A DNA stretch of 64,000 nucleotides, taken from the NCBI GenBank assembly GCA_937952215.1, contig CALFZH010000058.1, positions 81,452 through 145,451 on the forward strand. The letters are read 5' to 3'. Source of the stretch: an uncultured bacterium. Lineage in GTDB: Bacteria > Planctomycetota > UBA1135 > UBA2386. The notes below the pieces were generated by a model. It was given only the letters and a program-made list of their open reading frames with translations, did no database searches and was not told the origin of the DNA. This document shows, piece after piece, positions 40,130 to 61,337 of the stretch (within the stretch, counting starts at the first letter, position 1; every line of letters begins with the position of its first letter). The position numbers were made by a program, and so were the translations under genes.

Positions 40130-42304
40130 TCAGAAGCGGTGCGTGACGCCGAGCGCGAACACCATGCTGGCGGGCGCGCCGGGGAAGATGCCGCGCGCGG
40201 TGCGCGGCTCGAAGTACTCCTCGTCGAGCACGTTCCTGCCGCCGATCGACACCGAGACGTCGGTGTGCTCGCAGACGCTCTGCTCCCAGCCAGCTCCCAC
40301 GTTCCACAGCCGGTACGAAGGCCGCAGGCCGCGCGTGCCGTCGGCGGGGATGTTGCGCGTGTTGAGCGCGTCGGTGAACGCGGGGCCGACGTAGGCGCCG
40401 TCGAAGCCGATCCACAGCCCGGAGCGTTCGTGGCGATAGCGCGCGCCCCACGCCGCGGTCCACTTGCTGGTGCCGGCGAAGCGGTTGCCGTCGAACGCGC
40501 CGTTGGTGAACTTGGAGTCGTTCCACGCGGTCGAACTCCAGAGCGACACGCCGGCCAGGCCGGCCGCGGTCAGGTCGCTGTCGAGGCGCAGTTCGACGCC
40601 GCGATGGCGCGAGTTGCCACCGTTGACGAACACGTCGAACTGGTTCGGGTCCTGGATCAGCCGATCGCGGTAGTCGATGTGGTAGAGCACGACGTCGGCG
40701 CCGAACAGGCCGTCCTGGCTGCGTGTGCGTGAGCCGAGTTCGTAGACCCACGCGTACTGCGCGCTGACGTCCTGCGGGTTGGTGGTGATCGAGATCTGTG
40801 GCGCCTGCGGGGCCGCGAACGTGCTTTGCACGCCGCCGTAGAGCGACCACTGTGCGGTCAGCAGCTTGCTGATGCCGAGACCCGGCAGCACCTCGGTGAA
40901 GTCGCGGGTGACGCCGAGCCCGTTGATGCGGTTCCTGGCGTCGATCTCGACCCACTCGAAGCGCACGCCCGGCGTGATCGTCCAGCCGTCGAACTCGATG
41001 CGGTTCTCGACCCACGCTGACGCCGTGTAGTAGTCGTACTGCTCCTCGGTGCGCCGCAGCTGCACGGTACCGTTGGTCAGGTAGCGCGACACGGTGCGCA
41101 CGATGTCCTCCTGCAGGTAGCGCATGCCGACGTGCAGTTCGGCGTCGGCGCCGCCGAGGCGATAGGCGTGCGTGAGCTGCGGCTGCACGGCGACCGTGCG
41201 CATCGGCCGCGGCGTGGTCTGGATGTACTGGAGGTTGTTGGTGGCGCCGTAGAAGGTCGGGCTGCCGAGGTAGAACGATCGTTCGCCGTCGTAGCCGTAG
41301 GTGATCAGCTCGAACAACGTGTCGTCGGTGACGTCCCACTCGAGCTTCAGGTTGACGCGATCCTGCTGGCCGGAGTGGCGGTTCTGCGGCGACAGCGTGA
41401 CCTCGGGATTCGTGTTGTACTGATCGAGCGTGAGGCCGTCGGCGAGCTTGCTGTCGTCGTCGAAGTGCTCGATCTGGCCGAGCAGCTTGACGCGGTCGGA
41501 GAAGCGGTAGCTGGTCTTCAGCGCGTAGTTCTGCTGCGTGTAATCGCCGCCGTCGCGGAACGTGTCGCCTTGCTTGAACACCGTTTCGAGCAACACGCCG
41601 AACGGCCCGGTCGTGCTGCCGACCGCGCTGTAGTACGACTGGTTGTCGAACGTGTCGTAGCGCACGCGACCGATCCAGGTCGGCGTGCCGGGGATCGGCT
41701 GCGTGAGGAAGTTGATCACGCCCGAGACGTTGTTCGGGCCGTAGCGCACTGCGCCGCCGCCGCGCTGGATGTCGACCGCGTAGACGCGTTCGAGCGAGAA
41801 CGGGAACAGCGAGTTGCCGGGGCCGCCGTACGGCGCGGGTGCGAGCGGGATGCCGTCCGCGTACATGCCGAGGTTGATCGAGCGCCACGCGCCCTCGGCG
41901 CCGTTGGTGACGCCGCGCATCGCGATGTTCGGCAGTGAGTCGCTGCCGGTCTCCTCCTGGATCACGACGCCGGGCGAACGGCGCAGCAGCTCCGGCACGT
42001 TCATCACGCCGGCCTGCCGGACTTCGCGCGGGCCGATCAGCGTGCGCGCGCCGGGGTTCTCCATCGGCACCTCGGACCAGCGCCGTTCGGCTTCGGCGGC
42101 GGTCTCGGTGATCAGCACCTCGGGCAGGCGTTCGGCGTGATGCGCCGGCGGCTTCGCTGGCGGTGGATCCTGCGGTGCCGGTGGCGCGCCCTGCTGCGCG
42201 AGCAGCGGCAGCGAACCGGCGGCGAGGGCCGCAGCGACGGCGACGAGCGAGCGAGACGCGAACCCGCGCACGCGCGGCGCTGACGGATGGCGAGGACGAT
42301 GCAT
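40130..42304 (-). CDS. TonB-dependent outer-membrane receptor
   Basis: ATG 42304 within ORF 40130..42361 (TTG). Signal peptide ...AAALAAGSLPLLAQQ, plug domain, beta-barrel with alternating pattern, terminal ...GVTHRF. Confidence 0.9.
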   Translation of the reverse strand: MHRPRHPSAPRVRGFASRSLVAVAAALAAGSLPLLAQQGAPPAPQDPPPAKPPAHHAERLPEVLITETAAEAERRWSEVPMENPGARTLIGPREVRQAGVMNVPELLRRSPGVVIQEETGSDSLPNIAMRGVTNGAEGAWRSINLGMYADGIPLAPAPYGGPGNSLFPFSLERVYAVDIQRGGGAVRYGPNNVSGVINFLTQPIPGTPTWIGRVRYDTFDNQSYYSAVGSTTGPFGVLLETVFKQGDTFRDGGDYTQQNYALKTSYRFSDRVKLLGQIEHFDDDSKLADGLTLDQYNTNPEVTLSPQNRHSGQQDRVNLKLEWDVTDDTLFELITYGYDGERSFYLGSPTFYGATNNLQYIQTTPRPMRTVAVQPQLTHAYRLGGADAELHVGMRYLQEDIVRTVSRYLTNGTVQLRRTEEQYDYYTASAWVENRIEFDGWTITPGVRFEWVEIDARNRINGLGVTRDFTEVLPGLGISKLLTAQWSLYGGVQSTFAAPQAPQISITTNPQDVSAQYAWVYELGSRTRSQDGLFGADVVLYHIDYRDRLIQDPNQFDVFVNGGNSRHRGVELRLDSDLTAAGLAGVSLWSSTAWNDSKFTNGAFDGNRFAGTSKWTAAWGARYRHERSGLWIGFDGAYVGPAFTDALNTRNIPADGTRGLRPSYRLWNVGAGWEQSVCEHTDVSVSIGGRNVLDEEYFEPRTARGIFPGAPASMVFALGVTHRF

Positions 42305-42533
42305 GCGGCGGGATGGCCGGCGTGCGAGGGGAAGCGCGCTCGGCGTTCGCCAGGGAAGCAACGTATGTGCCTTCGCTCGGCGACGCGTTCTCGCGGCGGG
42401 ATGTCATCTGCCTGCGACACGGCGTTACGCAGCGACCACGCGACACCCGCGCGTGACACGCGCCGACGGCGATCGGCGCCCAGCCTGCGTCGGGGCATGT
42501 GCTTTGCGCAGCCGCGACGTGCCCACTACCGCG

Positions 42534-50607: not shown

Positions 50608-52305
50608 TCACTCGACGCGCAGTGGCCACGGCGGGCTCGTCGGCAGCCGTGCGGGATCTTCGGCCGTCGTCGTCGGCACGCGGCGCAGCCGCAGGAACAG
50701 GTCGACGCCGCGCGGCAGGAACGCAAAGCCACCCTCGGGCAGCGTGAACGTGTCGCCGGTGATCGCCCAGGTGCCGCCGGTCCACTCGTGCGTGGCGAGG
50801 TGCACGCGGCCCGCGGCATCGAAGGCGTAGAGCGAGTAGCGCACGCCCGGCGGCGCGTCCGGGTCGTCCCAGTGCAGCGTCGGCGGCGTGCGCAGCACCC
50901 CGCCGCCGGCGTCGCGCCACCGCAGGTGCGGCGTGGTGGCCGGAGCGACGATGCCGCCGACGAGGGAGCGATGCGACGGTGGGGCGGGCGCCAGCTCGAT
51001 CGCGAACGCCGGCGCGAACCAGCCGACGAACACGGCGATCGCCGCGAGCGGCGGCAGCGCGGCGAACGCGCGCCGCCATGCGAGACCGTTGGTGAGTCGC
51101 AGCAGGCCCACCGCGAGCAGGATCGCCGCGGGCGCTGCGGCCGGCAGCAGCAGGCGCGCCTGGGGTTGCGGCGACTTCCAGTTGAAGGTCGCGGTGCCGG
51201 CGAACACGAGCAGCAGCGCGAGCGCCAGCAGCCAGGACTCGTGCAGCGGCGGACGTTCGCGATCCATGCGCCAGCGCGCGAGCCCGGCCAGCGCCAGCGC
51301 GGCGACGGATGTCCCGGTCCACACCAGTGCCGACGGCGCCGGCAGGCTGAACCAGCCGAAGCGGCCGAACAACGCCGGCCCGATCGTCGGCAGGAAGCCG
51401 CTGGTGAACCACGTCCATCGATGTTCGGGCGGGATCGGCGCGAACGCCGCGTCGTGCGCGCTCGTTGCCAGCAGGTCGCCGTAGAGCATGCCGTTGCGCA
51501 CGAACCACCAGCCGGCGAGCGCGGCCAGGACCAGCGCCGAGATCGCGGCGGCGACTGCGCACGCGCGGCGGCCGTCGCCGTCGCGGCGTGCACGCACGAC
51601 GAACGCGAGGGCGGCGAGCGGCAGCAGGAACAACGTCGTCAGCTTGGTGAGCAGCGCGCCAGCGAGCAGGGCACCGATCACGACGCCATGCCCGCGCCGC
51701 ACGCGTTCGGCACGCAGCATCGTCACGATCGCCAGCACGGCCGCGGTCGTGACGGTGATCGCCAGCACGTCGTTGTTGAGCACGCCATGCAGGAACGACC
51801 ACATCGGCAGGCACGCGGTCAGCAGCGCCGCGAGGTCGGCGACGCGCGGCATGGTCGGGCAGCAGATCCGGGCGAGCCGGTGGAGCAGCACGAGCGACAG
51901 CGCGCCGAGCGCCACGGAAACGCTGCGCAGCAGCAGCAGCACGGCGGGCGGGCCGACGGCGTGGCGGAACTTCAGGTGCTGCGACGGTTGCGTCGCGTCG
52001 CCGAACGCCGGATTGCCCAGCGGGCCGAACACGGTGTCGTCGGTGCCGGTCGCGAGCAGCGGGAGTGCCAGCAGCGCGTAGTACAGCGGTGGATGGTGGG
52101 CGAGGCCGACCTGCTCGGTCTGCGGCAGGCCACGCGCCGCGGCGAGCTGCCGCGCGAGCGGCAGCTTCTTGGCGTTGGCGAGGTGCCAGGCGTACTCGTA
52201 GTGGCTGTTCTCGTCGGGGCCCTCGAAGCTCGGCGTGCGCCACGCGTAGGCGCCGGCGAGTGCGAGGTGCAGGGCGACGGCGAGCAGAAGCCACGAACGC
52301 GGCAT
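50608..52305 (-). CDS. GT-C-fold membrane glycosyltransferase (ArnT/PMT-like)
   Basis: From ATG 52305 in ORF 50608..53721. First-loop GPDENSHYEYAWHL (DE motif), more than 10 TM spans, C-terminal soluble beta-rich domain. Confidence 0.7.
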   Translation of the reverse strand: MPRSWLLLAVALHLALAGAYAWRTPSFEGPDENSHYEYAWHLANAKKLPLARQLAAARGLPQTEQVGLAHHPPLYYALLALPLLATGTDDTVFGPLGNPAFGDATQPSQHLKFRHAVGPPAVLLLLRSVSVALGALSLVLLHRLARICCPTMPRVADLAALLTACLPMWSFLHGVLNNDVLAITVTTAAVLAIVTMLRAERVRRGHGVVIGALLAGALLTKLTTLFLLPLAALAFVVRARRDGDGRRACAVAAAISALVLAALAGWWFVRNGMLYGDLLATSAHDAAFAPIPPEHRWTWFTSGFLPTIGPALFGRFGWFSLPAPSALVWTGTSVAALALAGLARWRMDRERPPLHESWLLALALLLVFAGTATFNWKSPQPQARLLLPAAAPAAILLAVGLLRLTNGLAWRRAFAALPPLAAIAVFVGWFAPAFAIELAPAPPSHRSLVGGIVAPATTPHLRWRDAGGGVLRTPPTLHWDDPDAPPGVRYSLYAFDAAGRVHLATHEWTGGTWAITGDTFTLPEGGFAFLPRGVDLFLRLRRVPTTTAEDPARLPTSPPWPLRVE

Positions 52306-52364
52306 GCGGCGCACTCTACGGCGCGTGCCCGCGGCTAACGCGAAGCTTGACCACGCCGCGGTGG

Positions 52365-52526
52365 CTGCACATGCTGCGCGCGCCTGTCGCAGGGAAGTCC
52401 GGTGCAACACCGGCGCTGTCCCGCAGCTGTCACCGGGTACGAACGTCCAACAGCCACTGGTGGTCCGTGTCGGATCCCCGGGAAGGCGGACCAGTAGGTC
52501 GATCCGGAAGCCAGAACACCTGCGCC
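52365..52526 (+). promoter_or_regulatory. cobalamin (B12) riboswitch
   Basis: AGGGAAGTCCGGTGCAACACCGG (from 52391), GCTGTCCCGCAGCTGT, CAGCCACTGG, GGGAAGGCGG, and B12 box GAAGCCAGAACACCTGCGCC ending at 52526. All are in the canonical order on the + strand. Confidence 0.85.
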
Positions 52527-52590
52527 CGGCCGGCCCTCGCGGGCCGCTCCGATCCTCCGCGCGGCGCGCTACACGCCGACTGGAGACCGA

Positions 52591-53964
52591 ATGTCTGTTC
52601 CGACCGCTCTCGGGCGGCGCGCCCTTGCGCCCCGCACCCCCTTCTTCCGTTCGTCCTTCGCCGCGGCGCTGCTCGCCGCCCTGGCGCCGATCGCGGCGCA
52701 GCAGGTGCCCGAAGGACTCGCCGCCACCACGGCGCGTGTGACCGCGGCCACGAGCCTGGCGCTGCACACCGCCGCCGGCGTCGTGACGTTCGACACCGGC
52801 AGCGTCCTGCTGACGCCACCGGGCCAGCCGTCGCAGAACCTGCTGACGCTGAGTGGCACCGTGTTCGGTTCGTTCCTGCTGCAGACCGACGCCGCGCACG
52901 TGCTGTTCGGGCACACGGGCTTCGGCCCGAATGGCGCCAACGACCGCGTGTGGCTCGTGCCGCTGCAGGGCCCGTCGCCGGCATTGCCGCTGGCTGCCGT
53001 GCCGTTCAACTACGACGCGGTGATGCTGACGGCGACGAGCGTGCTCGTGTCGGCTCGCGCCGGCGGCTTCGCTGTCGCGCAGAACGACCTCGTCGTCCTC
53101 GATCTCGCCACCGGCGGCACCCAGACCATCGCGACGCTGCCGGGCGCCTCGGGCCCGGTCGTGATCGCACCGAACGGCGACGTCCTGTATGCGACCGCAT
53201 CCCCGTCGTTCCCGGCCCCGCCCGGGGCCGTGGAGATCCTGCGGTTCCTGCGTGTGGACATCGACGACGCGATCGCCAACCAGACGGTGCTCGGCATCGC
53301 CGACGCGCAGGTGGTTTGCACCGCCCTCGATGCGGCGAGCGACTTCGCCATCGACGACGACGGCGATCTGCTGTTCGTCGACTGGATGAACGCGCGCGTC
53401 AGCGAGATCAGCGACGTGGACACCATGCCGACGCTCGTCCCGGCGGTCGTCGACTACACGAATGCGCCCACGTTCCCGGCGACGCTGCAGTTCGTGCCGG
53501 GCTCGCAGCAGGGTCAGTTCGAGCCGTTCCAGCCGACCAACGGGCGCCTGGTCGTCTTCGAGTCGGACTACTGGAGCACGACCCGATTGCGCACGGTCAC
53601 TGCGGCCCCGGCGTCGCTGCACGTCAGCGGCGGTGCGGTGATCCCCACCGGTCCGTTCACGATCGCTGCGACGAAAGGGCCGAGCCTCGGTCTCGGTGTC
53701 ATCGCGTTCACGCTCGGCCACGGGCCGGGACCGGTCGCCGCCAGCGTGCCCGGCTACGAGCAGTTGTTGTGGCTCGCGCCTGCCGTGCTGAACGGCAACC
53801 CGATCCAGGTGCTCGTGCCGTTCGACGCCGCCGGCTCGGCATCGCTGGTGGTGCCCAACCCGGGCTTCGCGTCGGCGATCACGGCGACGACGCAGGTGGT
53901 GTTCTTGTCGACCACGGCCGTGCTCGGCGCGACCAACCCGGTCGCGATCACGATCGGCCAGTGA
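52591..53964 (+). CDS. secreted beta-propeller-like hypothetical protein (riboswitch-controlled)
   Basis: SD GGAG (52582-52585). Signal peptide ...FAAALLAALAPIAAQQ. Blade-like repeats VVIAPNGDVLYATAS and DDDGDLLFVDWMNARVSEIS. Confidence 0.6.
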   Translation: MSVPTALGRRALAPRTPFFRSSFAAALLAALAPIAAQQVPEGLAATTARVTAATSLALHTAAGVVTFDTGSVLLTPPGQPSQNLLTLSGTVFGSFLLQTDAAHVLFGHTGFGPNGANDRVWLVPLQGPSPALPLAAVPFNYDAVMLTATSVLVSARAGGFAVAQNDLVVLDLATGGTQTIATLPGASGPVVIAPNGDVLYATASPSFPAPPGAVEILRFLRVDIDDAIANQTVLGIADAQVVCTALDAASDFAIDDDGDLLFVDWMNARVSEISDVDTMPTLVPAVVDYTNAPTFPATLQFVPGSQQGQFEPFQPTNGRLVVFESDYWSTTRLRTVTAAPASLHVSGGAVIPTGPFTIAATKGPSLGLGVIAFTLGHGPGPVAASVPGYEQLLWLAPAVLNGNPIQVLVPFDAAGSASLVVPNPGFASAITATTQVVFLSTTAVLGATNPVAITIGQ

Positions 53965-56093: not shown

Positions 56094-58337
56094 TCAGTCG
56101 GGCCGCAGCACCTTGCGGGCCCGCAGCAGCAGCCCGAGCGACGCCGGCGGCAGGTCCTTGCGAAGGCGCTCGTCGATCGCGGCGACGAACGCGTCGCCGG
56201 TCTTGGCGCGGCGCAGGTAACCGGCGATGCGCTCGAGGTTCCGCAGCCCGTCGCGGGCGTCGAGCAGCGCGATCGCGCACGACTCGGCGCGCGCGGCGTC
56301 GAGCGTTTCGGGGTGTGCTTGGAACCACGCCCTGCACTGCCCGCAATCCACGTCGGAGCCAGTGTGCAGGTAGACGAGGCTCGTCAGCGCTTCGACATGG
56401 CGGCGGTCCAACGCGACGGCTGCTTCGTACGCCGCGGCTGCCTCGTCGAAGCGGTGCAGGCTGTCGAGCACGGCCCCGTAGTTGAGCCAGGCACCGGGGC
56501 CCGGTGCGGCATCGACGACCTGGCGGAACAACGGCAACGCCGCTTCGTGGTCGCGCCGCCCGTTCAGGATCGACGCCTTGGTGCGGATCATCTCGAGCGG
56601 TGTCGGCGAGCCCGCAAGCGCGATCGCGCGATCGATCGTGACGAGCCCCTGGTCGTAACTGTGCGCCACCGAGTGGGCCTTGGCGAGTTCGTGCCACGTC
56701 GAAGCGGTGGCCCGCGGCAACGCGACGGCGTCGGTGAGCGCGCTGATCGCCTCGGCGCCGCGACGCTGTTGTCGCAGCAGCCGGCCGAGTTCGGCGCGCA
56801 GGCGCACGCTGCCCGGCAGCAGGCGGATCGCCGACAGCAGTTCGCGTTCGGCGACGTCGTTGGTGCCGGCCGCGGCAGCCGCGATCGCCCGCCACGCGAT
56901 CGCGATCGTCGCGTCGGGCGCCATCGCCACGGCGGCCGCGAAGTCCGACTCGGCTGCTTTCGCATCGCGAGGCAGTGCTGCGGCGCCCGCGCGCAGGTGC
57001 GCGACGAACGCGTCCTCGCCGTGCGGTTCGGCTCCGGTGAGCCAGGCGGCGAGCGCGAGTTCGCCGTTCGCGGCCAATGTCGCTGCGGCGGCGGCGAGGC
57101 CCGTGCCGTCGCCGTCGAGGTGGCATTCGGCGGCAGCGATGCGGGCGAGCCGCAGTTCCTCGGCGCGGGCGCTGCGGTACCAGTCGAGGCCGATCCAGCC
57201 AGCGAGCGCGAGCGCTGCTGCGGCCGTGAGTCCGAGCAATGGCGCGCGACGGCGCTGTGCGAACTCGGCGACCTGCTGCGACCAGCCGAGCGTCAGGCCG
57301 ATCGGTCGACCGCCGGCGGCGATCAGTTCGAGGGCGCGCGCCAGGGCGGCGGCGTCGCCTGGCCGATGCCGCGGCCGGAACGCCATCGCCGAGCGCGTGA
57401 TCAGGTCGAGTTCGCGCGGCACGGTGCGGTCGACCATGCGCGGCGTCGGCGGCAGGCGGTGGCGTGCGTCGCTGAGGACCTGCAGCGGGTCGTCGCCCGC
57501 CCGCGGCGGCTGCAGCGTCAGCATCTCGAAGAGGATCGCGCCGAGGCCGTAGACGTCGCTCGCGGCGGTCGCGGGTTCGCCGCGCGCCTGCTCGGGCGCC
57601 ATGTAGGCGGGCGTGCCGAGCACCTCGCCGGTCGCGGTCAGCGTCGCCGCGGCGGCATCGGCGGCGAGACCGAAGTCGACGACGACCGGCGAACCATCGG
57701 CGCGCAGCAGCACGTTGCCGGGCTTGAGGTCGCGATGCAGCACGCCGGCGGCGTGCGCGGCGGCCAGCCCGTTGGCCAGGGCGCCGACGAACCGCGCGAT
57801 GCGTGACCAGGCGTCGCCGGGGCCCGTCAGGATCGTGGCGGCGCGTTCGCGCCCTTCGCGCCGCGCGCGGTCGAGCCATGCCGACAGCGTGCCGCCGGCC
57901 ACGTGCTCCATGACGACGAACGGGGCGCCGTTCGCCGGGTCGTCGCCGACGTCGACGATCGCGACGACGTTGCCGTGGCGCAGCTCGCGCAGCACGTGGG
58001 CCTCGCGGTGCAGTCGTTCGTTCGCGCGCGCCAGCGCGGCGGCATGCGGTAGCAGCCGTTTCAAGGCGAACGGCGCGCCCCGCTCGTCCACGACCACGAA
58101 CACTTCGCCGGTGGCGCCGCGACCCAGGCGCGATCGCACCTGCCATCGGCCGATGCGCGCCGGCAGCCCGGCGTCGGGCAGCAGACCGGACGTCGCCAGC
58201 ATCGCGTCGAGGGCCGCGCGCAGCCGTTCGGCGGCGGCGGGGTGTTCGGCGGCGAACGTGCTTGGCGTGACCGCCTCGCCGGCATCGCGCCGCGCCCAGA
58301 ACTCGGCGAGCAGCTCCTCGAGCCGTTCGTCGTTCAC
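56094..58337 (-). CDS. Ser/Thr protein kinase with TM segment and C-terminal TPR repeats
   Basis: GTG start. GRGATGEVF...ALK, HRDLKPGNVLL, DFGLA, GTPAYMAPEQ. TM span LLGLTAAAALALAGWIGL. TPR-like repeats to the end. Confidence 0.9.
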   Translation of the reverse strand: MNDERLEELLAEFWARRDAGEAVTPSTFAAEHPAAAERLRAALDAMLATSGLLPDAGLPARIGRWQVRSRLGRGATGEVFVVVDERGAPFALKRLLPHAAALARANERLHREAHVLRELRHGNVVAIVDVGDDPANGAPFVVMEHVAGGTLSAWLDRARREGRERAATILTGPGDAWSRIARFVGALANGLAAAHAAGVLHRDLKPGNVLLRADGSPVVVDFGLAADAAAATLTATGEVLGTPAYMAPEQARGEPATAASDVYGLGAILFEMLTLQPPRAGDDPLQVLSDARHRLPPTPRMVDRTVPRELDLITRSAMAFRPRHRPGDAAALARALELIAAGGRPIGLTLGWSQQVAEFAQRRRAPLLGLTAAAALALAGWIGLDWYRSARAEELRLARIAAAECHLDGDGTGLAAAAATLAANGELALAAWLTGAEPHGEDAFVAHLRAGAAALPRDAKAAESDFAAAVAMAPDATIAIAWRAIAAAAAGTNDVAERELLSAIRLLPGSVRLRAELGRLLRQQRRGAEAISALTDAVALPRATASTWHELAKAHSVAHSYDQGLVTIDRAIALAGSPTPLEMIRTKASILNGRRDHEAALPLFRQVVDAAPGPGAWLNYGAVLDSLHRFDEAAAAYEAAVALDRRHVEALTSLVYLHTGSDVDCGQCRAWFQAHPETLDAARAESCAIALLDARDGLRNLERIAGYLRRAKTGDAFVAAIDERLRKDLPPASLGLLLRARKVLRPD

Positions 58338-58912
58338 GCAGGCCCCCCGACCAGCAGGGTGAGCTTCGCCATGGCCCGCGAGAACAACTTGCGCACGGCG
58401 TCGTCGCTGCGGCCGGTGCGGGCGGCCGTCTCCTGGCTCGACAGTCCTTCGAAGCGGCGGAGCTGCACGACCTGCCGCATGTCGGCGGGCAGCGACAACA
58501 GCGCGCGTTCGAGCGCCTCGAAGCGTGGGTCGTCGTAGCTCGGCGGGCCCGCCGCGACGACGCCCTCGGCAAGGGTGTCGGTCAGCGCGGTCGGCTCGCC
58601 GCGGCGACGCAGGGCGCGCGCGCGATCGATCAGGCGATGGCGCACGAGCCGGCGCAGCAGCCCGGTGAACCCAGACGCCGGCGGCTCGGCGTTCTTGCGC
58701 AGCACCTCGAACGCTTCGCGGGCGACGCTCTGCAGCACGTCCTCACTCTGCATCGCCGCGCGCAGCTTCGGTCCCATGCCCGCACGCACCGCGAGCAGCA
58801 GTTCGTCCCGGTGGCGGCGGTAGAGCACCGCGAACGCCTCGCTCTCGCCGGCCCGCAGCCGAGCGAGCAGCTCGAGGCTATGCGCACTGTCGGGGGCGTC
58901 GGGCAGGCCCAT
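58334..58912 (-). CDS. ECF-type RNA polymerase sigma-70 factor
   Basis: Region 2 SEDVLQSVAREAFE, region 4 GLSSQETAARTGRSDDAVRKLFSRAMAKL. TGA overlaps the kinase GTG (GTGA). Confidence 0.85.
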   Translation of the reverse strand: MGLPDAPDSAHSLELLARLRAGESEAFAVLYRRHRDELLLAVRAGMGPKLRAAMQSEDVLQSVAREAFEVLRKNAEPPASGFTGLLRRLVRHRLIDRARALRRRGEPTALTDTLAEGVVAAGPPSYDDPRFEALERALLSLPADMRQVVQLRRFEGLSSQETAARTGRSDDAVRKLFSRAMAKLTLLVGGPA

Positions 58913-60690: not shown

Positions 60691-61119
60691 CTACTTGCGC
60701 GGCCGGCGACCAGGGCCGCGGCGCGCTTTTCGCGGCGTCTGCGCGGCATTCTCGCGCAACCACGCGGCGAAGGCCTCTTCGTCGAGCGTGCCGTCCGCCA
60801 CGCCGAGCATGAAGGCCGCGGCATGCGCGGGCGGCGCCGTGAACCGGAGCCCGTTGCGTTCGAGGAACACCGTGGTCGCAAGGAACGCCACGCGCTTGTT
60901 GCCGTCGACGAACGGGTGGTTCTTGGCGATGCCGTGACCGTAGGCGGCGGCCAGCCGACAGAGGTCGGCCCGCTCGTAGTTGAAGAGGTGCCGTGGCCGG
61001 GCAAGAGCCGACGCGAGCAGGCCGGGGTCGCGCAGCCCATCCGAGCCACCGAACCGGCGGATGCTGTCGGCGTGCATCGCCAGGACCGCCTCCTGGCTCA
61101 GCCAGATCGGCGTCTTCAC
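60691..61119 (-). CDS. doc: Doc (death-on-curing) Fic-family toxin
   Basis: Doc-type Fic motif HPFVDGNKRVAF. GTG start overlaps the antitoxin TGA (GTGA). Basic C-terminal tail. Confidence 0.9.
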   Translation of the reverse strand: MKTPIWLSQEAVLAMHADSIRRFGGSDGLRDPGLLASALARPRHLFNYERADLCRLAAAYGHGIAKNHPFVDGNKRVAFLATTVFLERNGLRFTAPPAHAAAFMLGVADGTLDEEAFAAWLRENAAQTPRKARRGPGRRPRK

Positions 61120-61337
61120 TTGGCGAGCTCGCGGAGCGTCCGGCTGTAGCGCGTCATCAGCGAGCGCGCGATACGCACCTGCTCTTCGAACTCGGCGTCC
61201 TCCACCGAAAGCTGGTAGCCCTTTTCGTTCGGCAGCAGGGTCAGGGTGCTGCCGTCCTTCACCTGCAGCGCCTTCACGACGTCGGCGGGCAGGATCACCC
61301 CGAAGGAGTTGCCGATCTTGCGCAGCTTGAGTTCCAT
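61116..61337 (-). CDS. AbrB/MazE/SpoVT-family antitoxin
   Basis: From ATG 61337 in ORF 61116..61376: MELKLRKIGNSFGVILPADVVKALQVKDGSTLTL (swapped-hairpin motif). Confidence 0.8.
   Translation of the reverse strand: MELKLRKIGNSFGVILPADVVKALQVKDGSTLTLLPNEKGYQLSVEDAEFEEQVRIARSLMTRYSRTLRELAK

Follow-up and report, generated by a model that had tools for sequence, protein, structure and literature searches.

We found that a 64-kb stretch of Planctomycetota DNA, hereafter the window, carries a cobalamin (vitamin B12) riboswitch in front of a single gene for a predicted secreted protein of 457 amino acids (aa). The modelled protein consists of a six-bladed beta-propeller and a C-terminal immunoglobulin (Ig)-like domain. 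Of 38 related Planctomycetota species, at least 37 retain this pairing of riboswitch and propeller gene, and in related genomes the pair stands next to genes with B12-related similarities. What is new is the regulated protein family, together with the gene cluster that surrounds it in related genomes, and not the riboswitch. We favor, with moderate confidence, the interpretation that this is a B12-repressed secreted protein acting in corrinoid acquisition, most probably as a component that binds corrinoids or hands them over. Judged from sequence and predicted structure, it is a strong candidate for a new component of B12 acquisition.

Competition for vitamin B12 shapes microbial communities, and sludge, soil, freshwater, and marine samples are rich in Planctomycetota. 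We found no paper on B12 uptake in Planctomycetota, and no published description of this propeller family or of the targets of B12 riboswitches in the phylum was found in the literature. The analysis singles out one protein together with a whole candidate cluster, which comprises a second propeller, a giant repeat protein, and QueG/CblC-like and BtuF-like neighbors.

The cobalamin riboswitch and its conservation

The whole 64-kb window was scanned with Rfam cmscan, and the cobalamin riboswitch family RF00174 was the sole match. It was located at 52391-52521 on the plus strand with 81.7 bits against a gathering score of 31.5 (E = 1.4e-18), which is far beyond chance. The alignment was local and covered model positions 45-169 of 189. 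The closing P1-type helix, formed by CGCAGG (52388-52393) and CCUGCG (52519-52524), was legible directly in the sequence. The first conserved core, AGGGAAGTCCGGTGCAACACCGG, begins at 52391, and all cores and the B12 box (GAAGCCAGAACACCTGCGCC, 52507-52526) occur in canonical order in both the sequence and the model alignment. The element lies in a divergent intergenic region of 285 nt (52306-52590), 70 nt 5' of the AUG of the 457-aa open reading frame (ORF) and on the same strand. An earlier sequence-only reading of this stretch had placed the riboswitch cores here, together with a hairpin at 52531-52546, two CUCC tracts, a GGAG at 52582-52585, and the ATG at 52591; all of these positions were verified.

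The RNA is an ordinary member of RF00174 (clan CL00101). It shares with other members, such as the E. coli btuB leader, the order of conserved cores and B12 box, the score, and the position in a 5' leader. As in members that act on translation, structure is present near the Shine-Dalgarno (SD) sequence and a terminator is absent. It differs from the family in that the controlled gene lies outside every known B12-regulon family, and in that a near-invariant hairpin specific to the present family (GGCGCGCAAGACGCC) adjoins the SD in the expression platform.

We examined whether the riboswitch is also present before related genes. A search of ~5.8 billion proteins returned more than 150 homologues of ~430-470 aa with 40-88% identity, none of which had a Pfam domain and all named ones of which were annotated as "hypothetical protein". 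All organism-labelled homologues were from Planctomycetota, almost entirely uncultured, except for one labelled only "bacterium". An exhaustive profile search against 1.84 billion representatives gave 241 clusters at E <= 1e-30. GTDB species-representative genomes contained 38 loci with a relative at 39-57% identity (numbered here with the prefix L). Of these, 36 had a full RF00174 match of 69-98 bits preceding the gene on its own strand; many of these matches share the local span of the window match at equal scores, and others are full length. As for the two exceptions, the L013 contig begins inside the riboswitch, with the B12 box at L013:15-29 and the conserved platform after it, and the L014 contig begins inside an upstream paralogue. 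Since both are contig ends, the riboswitch accompanies the orthologues about as completely as the data allow. These results demonstrate that the riboswitch-propeller pairing is kept in at least 37 of the 38 species.

The leader was also conserved across the family between the B12 box and the start codon. The platform consists, in order, of the 3' strand of P1, hairpin A, a pyrimidine-rich linker of ~16 nt, hairpin B, a purine-rich SD-like tract, and the AUG (Table 1). The SD-like tract lies 3-6 nt before the AUG and is GAGGUGG-like in most orthologous leaders and UGGAG in the window. A hairpin in the position of hairpin A was predicted for nearly all of the 32 aligned leaders, its stem sequence differing between species; it was out of register in the MAFFT alignment of the platform and visible only in single-sequence folds. 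Hairpin B has the family form GGCG-CGCAAGA-CGCC, almost invariant in sequence. It was the only helix in the RNAalifold consensus of this alignment, and one compensatory pair (G-C to A-U) was present in 3 sequences.

The sequence-only reading had proposed that a CUCC tract sequesters the GGAG, and this pairing was present in the minimum-free-energy fold of the window, where an outer helix of CUCCG (52555-52559) and UGGAG (52581-52585) extends hairpin B and buries the SD. In ensemble folding of 30 leaders, the pairing probability between the SD region and the linker was 0.69, compared with 0.57 for shuffled linkers (Wilcoxon p = 2e-4), and native pairing exceeded shuffled pairing in 24 of the 30. 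A terminator-like site was looked for in the leader and none was found. Because a terminator is absent, hairpin B adjoins the SD, and the CUCCG/UGGAG helix pairs with it, control at the level of translation initiation is favored and appears the most likely mode.

In leaders of genes whose products share 39-57% identity with the window protein, the sequence of hairpin B is kept as well as its pairing. This conservation suggests a sequence-specific role, which may be a tertiary contact with the aptamer or an alternative pairing with the CGCGC-rich 3' strand of P1. A pairing of the 5' flank (GCGCGCC) with hairpin B, seen in the centroid fold of the window, was rejected since it was not conserved in other loci. 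One subgroup (L013, L019, L020, L023, L024, and L027) has an extra 150-250 nt between the hairpin B-SD-AUG element and the propeller signal peptide (for example L013:97-255), with a conserved CCGCACCGAAUGCGG hairpin inside. This region may be a leader ORF, an N-terminal extension, or an RNA structure; its reading frame is not consistently open, and a candidate leader ORF in a marine subgroup did not stay in one frame.

The propeller protein and gene clusters in related genomes

The ORF has a G+C content at third codon positions of 0.91, the codon bias of a real gene in a genome of ~71% G+C. Its N-terminus has basic residues followed by AAALLAALAPIAA before QQ and reads as a Sec signal peptide. 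The predicted local distance difference test (pLDDT) score of the AlphaFold2 model was below 50 over these residues (1-36). There is no Cys in residues 1-45, which means that the signal peptide lacks a lipobox and that the protein does not belong to the lipoproteins. The A-Q-Q junction was conserved in the homologue alignment, and a lipobox was likewise missing from the homologues. The protein is predicted from these features to be exported to the periplasm or cell surface. The longer family members P0219, P0160, and P0242 differed only by tandem duplication of the propeller and by unannotated extensions. P0219 (674 aa) has two tandem propeller regions followed by a C-terminal dockerin-like DxNxDGxxD repeat, which is consistent with a cell-surface or extracellular location of the family.

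The whole-protein AlphaFold2 model, built with an alignment of 40 sequences, had a pLDDT of 89.7 and a predicted template modelling score of 0.86. Its 24 propeller strands form six four-stranded blades. The model was compared with the PDB using Foldseek, and the best matches were six-bladed: SMP-30/gluconolactonase/LRE-type proteins (2p4o, 4gn7), luciferin-regenerating enzyme (LRE), strictosidine synthase, Vgb lyase, RPA3624 lactonase, and Pizza6. The template modelling (TM) scores on the target were ~0.6 at 10-16% identity, with 0.61 for 2p4o (E = 3.5e-7) and 0.58 for 4gn7. The C-terminal domain matched only generic Ig V, fibronectin type III, and macroglobulin-like domains, with TM scores of ~0.45-0.5. 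When the family profile was searched against PDB sequences, only the NHL-derived Pizza proteins were found (E = 1e-11 to 1e-8), and only one blade was matched. This blade, DAAxDFAIDDDGDLLFVDW, is a canonical NHL repeat with the pattern D-x-x-G-x-L-x-F-V-D-W, and a second blade (PVVIAPNGDVLYATAS) shows the same NHL-type pattern. Pfam (E <= 1) and NCBIfam scans of the protein gave no match, including to NHL (PF01436) and SMP-30 (PF08450).

These results bear out the sequence-only reading of the protein, which had described a 457-aa signal-peptide protein with two blade-like strings, an NHL/SMP-30-type propeller with a C-terminal beta module, encoded by a gene outside the usual B12 regulon. The ORF length, both strings, and the signal peptide are present, the model and its Foldseek matches agree with the proposed architecture, and the empty domain scans agree with a target outside the usual regulon. 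That reading had also invoked BtuG by analogy only and claimed no homology, which is supported by the count of six blades rather than seven.

We compared the protein with known propellers and B12 binders. BtuG2 is a seven-bladed, B12-binding surface lipoprotein that is encoded next to btuB and found in Bacteroidetes only (PMC6143338; PDB 3DSM). The two have in common a beta-propeller, an extracytoplasmic location, loci regulated by B12 riboswitches, and limitation to one phylum. The present protein is distinguished by six NHL-type blades, the lack of a lipobox, an extra Ig-like domain, the lack of a btuB neighbor, and its occurrence in Planctomycetota. No BtuG sequence match to the propeller was found in any library searched, and BtuG was outside the top 50 structural matches. 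Because BtuG is seven-bladed and a lipoprotein, the protein is not a BtuG homologue.

Most SMP-30/LRE-like and strictosidine-synthase-like propellers are enzymes of the cytoplasm or vacuole and have a central metal or active site. The propeller shares six blades and a length of ~300 residues with these proteins (2p4o, 4gn7, 5d9d, 2fp8). A signal peptide and the C-terminal Ig-like domain set the present protein apart from them, as do the lack of a PF08450 match and an identity of only 10-16%. The NHL propellers, namely the PknD sensor domain and the Pizza designs derived from PknD, were the sole sequence-level matches in the PDB, but a single blade was significant and the Pfam NHL model did not match. 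We know of no link to B12 for NHL propellers, which are a generic scaffold for binding ligands or partners.

Other accessory B12 binders have been recognized, among them BtuH and BtuJ/DUF4465, which were identified from riboswitch or locus context (PMC8941943; 10.1101/2025.08.21.671476), and the algal protein CBA1 (PMC10828217). Like these, the present protein is an uncharacterized secreted protein tied to loci of B12 regulation or uptake. In fold they are unrelated to it; DUF4465 forms an augmented beta-jellyroll, whereas the C-terminal sandwich here is a generic Ig-like domain. BtuG, BtuH, BtuJ, and CBA1 each altered the picture of B12 acquisition, and all were found by the same locus logic.

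The neighborhoods of the 38 orthologous loci were examined next to the riboswitch. In 30 loci the propeller gene was followed on the same strand by a gene for a ~1000-aa protein that has a membrane anchor at its N-terminus and contains nine CarboxypepD_reg (PF13620) repeats, which was usually followed by a gene for a ~250-280-aa protein. A second propeller paralogue was the first gene of the operon, directly after the riboswitch, in 9 loci. It shared 26% identity with the window protein (E = 1e-11), the L043 and L044 copies shared 43% with each other, and Pfam and NCBIfam scans of the paralogue were likewise empty.

Divergent from the riboswitch, 29 of the 38 loci had a gene for a 259-aa iron-sulfur (Fe-S) protein (for example L042:7590-8366 (-) and L047:8865-9638 (-)). 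This protein has two invariant Cys clusters and the motif LLHPxFGPW, and it shares the CblC motif HPxFGxW. A search of its profile against the PDB gave QueG (5d08, E = 1e-3), MMACHC/CblC (0.03-0.06), NpRdhA (0.12), and PceA (0.8), and beyond these only weak, scattered matches. Each of the top four matches is a corrinoid enzyme, and the similarity of the 259-aa protein to QueG, RdhA, and PceA extends to the Fe-S motif region. It had no Pfam or NCBIfam match, and some family members are named epoxyqueuosine reductase by the Joint Genome Institute. Canonical QueG is far longer, and the 259-aa protein may therefore represent a minimal form of QueG or else a CblC-like enzyme that processes corrinoids.

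In 20 loci the 259-aa gene was followed by a gene for a 249-aa protein of PF01497 and the NCBIfam family TroA_like (for example L047:8106-8855 (-)). Its best solved relative, at 4.5e-11, was 5ysc, a vitamin B12-binding protein; BtuF of E. coli matched at 7e-7. The sequence of the 249-aa protein opens with the RIVSLxPSxTE motif, so a signal peptide is apparently absent. The next gene encodes a multi-pass membrane protein of ~210 aa (for example L047:7408-8043 (-)). No TonB-dependent receptor was seen among the orthologous neighborhoods listed. The B12-related neighbors in orthologous loci lend support to the corrinoid-capture hypothesis.

None of the cluster partners (the paralogue, the CarboxypepD_reg protein, and the 259-aa and 249-aa proteins) is encoded in the 64-kb window. 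The window belongs to a sublineage (with L005, L008, L009, L012, and L021) in which the propeller gene stands alone in unrelated neighborhoods, each time with its riboswitch. The metagenome-assembled genome (MAG) of L009 has a QueG-like gene on another contig. Judging from these arrangements, the riboswitch and the propeller gene left the cluster together as a unit in this sublineage. This joint movement argues that B12 control was selected on the propeller itself and was not a by-product of operon membership. A riboswitch kept before one secreted family in at least 37 species, even after the gene left its cluster, is close to the strongest pointer to function that sequence alone can give.

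In one related genome, a second RF00174 match (85.8 bits; L042:7384-7548 (-)) was present on the opposite strand ~1 kb from the first. It precedes a gene for a 342-aa protein (L043:6309-7337 (-)) with a signal-peptide-like N-terminus, no Pfam match, and weak similarity to the LIC_13355 lipoprotein. This looks like another uncharacterized B12-regulated secreted protein.

Proposed role and alternative explanations

In the mechanism that we propose, the riboswitch would sense intracellular corrinoid. When B12 is sufficient, production from the single downstream gene would be shut off; the SD would be masked by the CUCCG/UGGAG outer helix and the adjoining hairpin B, and translation initiation would be blocked. 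When B12 is scarce, the protein would be made, and its Sec signal peptide would direct the propeller/Ig-like protein to the periplasm or cell surface. There it would serve corrinoid acquisition, and its most probable task would be to bind corrinoids or to pass them to another component. In function, though not by homology, it would resemble accessory proteins such as BtuG. More tentatively, the propeller, its paralogue, the CarboxypepD_reg protein, the small protein, and the QueG/CblC-like and BtuF/TroA-like proteins may form an undescribed, BtuB-independent corrinoid-acquisition system of uncultured Planctomycetota with the propeller as its high-affinity binder, a possibility in which we place limited confidence. 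If true, propellers for the capture of B12 would have arisen twice independently, with BtuG as the earlier known case.

Several observations weigh against a role in corrinoid acquisition. There are no B12-related genes within ~10 kb on either side of the window propeller. The sole TonB-dependent receptor gene in the 64 kb (40130-42403 (-), ~10 kb away) was considered as a BtuB candidate and rejected, since its product is FecA-like (1pnz, E = 4e-57) and it has no riboswitch. The top 50 Foldseek matches of both the whole protein and the C-terminal domain included no known B12-binding protein, with BtuG (3DSM), BtuH, and BtuJ all missing, and no corrinoid-binding motif was found in the protein. 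The PDB E-values of the QueG/CblC-like 259-aa protein are marginal. All family members come from metagenome assemblies and hence offer no experimental handle. Regarding the RNA, a two-state thermodynamic model gave an SD unpaired probability of 0.31 in the aptamer-sequestered fold and 0.27 in the free fold (p = 0.16). In addition, no partner for a canonical L5-L13 kissing loop was recognizable here; L5 is invariant (CCCGC), and its complement occurs in neither platform hairpin loop. Since the model showed no change in SD accessibility and no kissing-loop partner is evident, the switching step is an inference here, as is the OFF direction.

The best Foldseek matches of the propeller are enzymes (lactonases, strictosidine synthase, and Vgb lyase), and this also counts against a binding protein. 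As the nearest structural relatives are enzymes, a catalytic role is possible; the propeller could be an extracytoplasmic hydrolase, lactonase, or lyase that is made under B12 limitation and frees corrinoids from carriers, or remodels or salvages precursors. The residues N140, D142, N165, D171, D255, D264, and E311 are invariant or nearly so and could form a central metal site, but the acidic ones lie partly within the canonical NHL structural motif. No Pfam enzyme family and no PF08450 match appeared at E <= 1, and the similarity to the enzymes is limited to 10-16% identity and a TM score of ~0.6 on the target only. We therefore regard an enzyme as unlikely. It is rather unlikely that the protein acts at the surface, in adhesion, or in the envelope as one element of a broader response to B12 starvation, with no direct part in B12 or cobalt supply. 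Such a protein might attach the cells to B12-producing partners, or it might provide a B12-independent substitute for an extracytoplasmic process. The generic NHL propeller and Ig-like architecture is typical of surface and adhesion proteins, the long multi-Ig-like operon partner has a weak match to an anammox S-layer glycoprotein model, and the window copy has no transport neighbors. Against this, the B12-related genes that adjoin the orthologous operons suggest a role in supply. The known cobalamin-riboswitch regulons consist mainly of genes for B12 synthesis and transport and for B12-independent isozymes, and such isozymes are cytoplasmic.

Cobalamin riboswitches also control cobalt transporters in B12 producers, and the secreted proteins might serve the acquisition of cobalt for de novo B12 synthesis rather than corrinoid uptake. 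The ~1000-aa partner has sub-threshold matches to nickel/cobalt-uptake proteins of transthyretin-like fold (DUF4198, E = 3e-4; NikL, E = 0.0036), but these are below the curated cutoffs and are explained by its generic CarboxypepD_reg beta-sandwich. The PF01497 neighbor passes the NCBIfam cutoff for "helical backbone metal receptor", whereas the solved structures closest to it are those of B12-binding proteins. The Fe-S protein encoded next to it is similar to corrinoid-binding enzymes, and no cbiMNQO, hoxN, or cbtAB-type gene was seen among the neighborhoods listed. A cobalt-related function thus appears quite improbable. It is very improbable that the aptamer is a decaying or non-regulatory relic, or that its target is the divergent glycosyltransferase-like gene. 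The match to the Rfam model is local, and the computation yielded no ON/OFF alternative fold, but orthologous matches with the same span score equally and others are full length. The riboswitch lies on the propeller strand close to the AUG, its platform is conserved up to the SD, and the divergent neighbor varies between lineages while the riboswitch-propeller pair is constant.

Features and neighborhood of the window

The features of the riboswitch-propeller locus are listed in Table 1.

Table 1. Positions of the riboswitch, platform, gene, and protein domains in the window
Feature	Position	Strand	Basis or remark
Divergent neighbor, 565-aa DUF2142/PMT_2-like membrane glycosyltransferase	50608..52305	-	Gene calls and domain scan
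Cobalamin riboswitch aptamer (RF00174)	52388..52526	+	Rfam match 52391-52521; helix read from sequence
Hairpin A, CGGCCC-UCGC-GGGCCG	52531..52546	+	GC-rich, no U-tract after it; sequence and folding
CUCC (CTCC) tracts	52547-52550 and 52555-52558	+	Sequence
Anti-SD tract CUCCG in pyrimidine-rich linker	52555..52559	+	Pairs with UGGAG in minimum-free-energy fold
Hairpin B, CGGCG-CGCUACA-CGCCG	52562..52578	+	Near-invariant across family, consensus GGCGCGCAAGACGCC
SD-like UGGAG (GGAG 52582-52585)	52581..52585	+	5 nt before start codon
Coding sequence, 457-aa secreted protein (predicted)	52591..53964	+	Monocistronic; gene calls on contig
Predicted Sec signal peptide, residues 1-36 (...APIAA/QQVPEG)	52591..52698	+	Read from sequence
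Six-bladed beta-propeller, residues 43-338, 24 strands	52717..53604	+	AlphaFold2 and Foldseek
C-terminal Ig-like beta-sandwich, residues 342-457	53614..53961	+	AlphaFold2, pLDDT 92.2 when modelled alone

The divergent 565-aa gene is outside the B12 unit. A Peptidase_M3 gene lies convergently downstream, and its 3' end overlaps the propeller ORF by 17 nt. The identical propeller protein is also encoded on several public contigs, for example DDSQ01000160.1 of GCA_002343845.1, a MAG from bioreactor sludge.

A gene with a TonB_C domain (~42.6-43.2 kb (+)) adjoins the gene for the FecA-like receptor, and the two are probably an iron-uptake unit unrelated to the riboswitch. A likely toxin-antitoxin-type pair occupies 60691-61337 (-), with a Fic-domain gene first and then a small gene that weakly matches the MazE antitoxin. 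At 56094-58912 (-), a gene for an extracytoplasmic function (ECF) sigma factor lies directly upstream of a gene for a Ser/Thr kinase with tetratricopeptide repeats. A similar pair, or the kinase gene alone, recurs near the propeller cluster in other Planctomycetota loci (L044 and L045).

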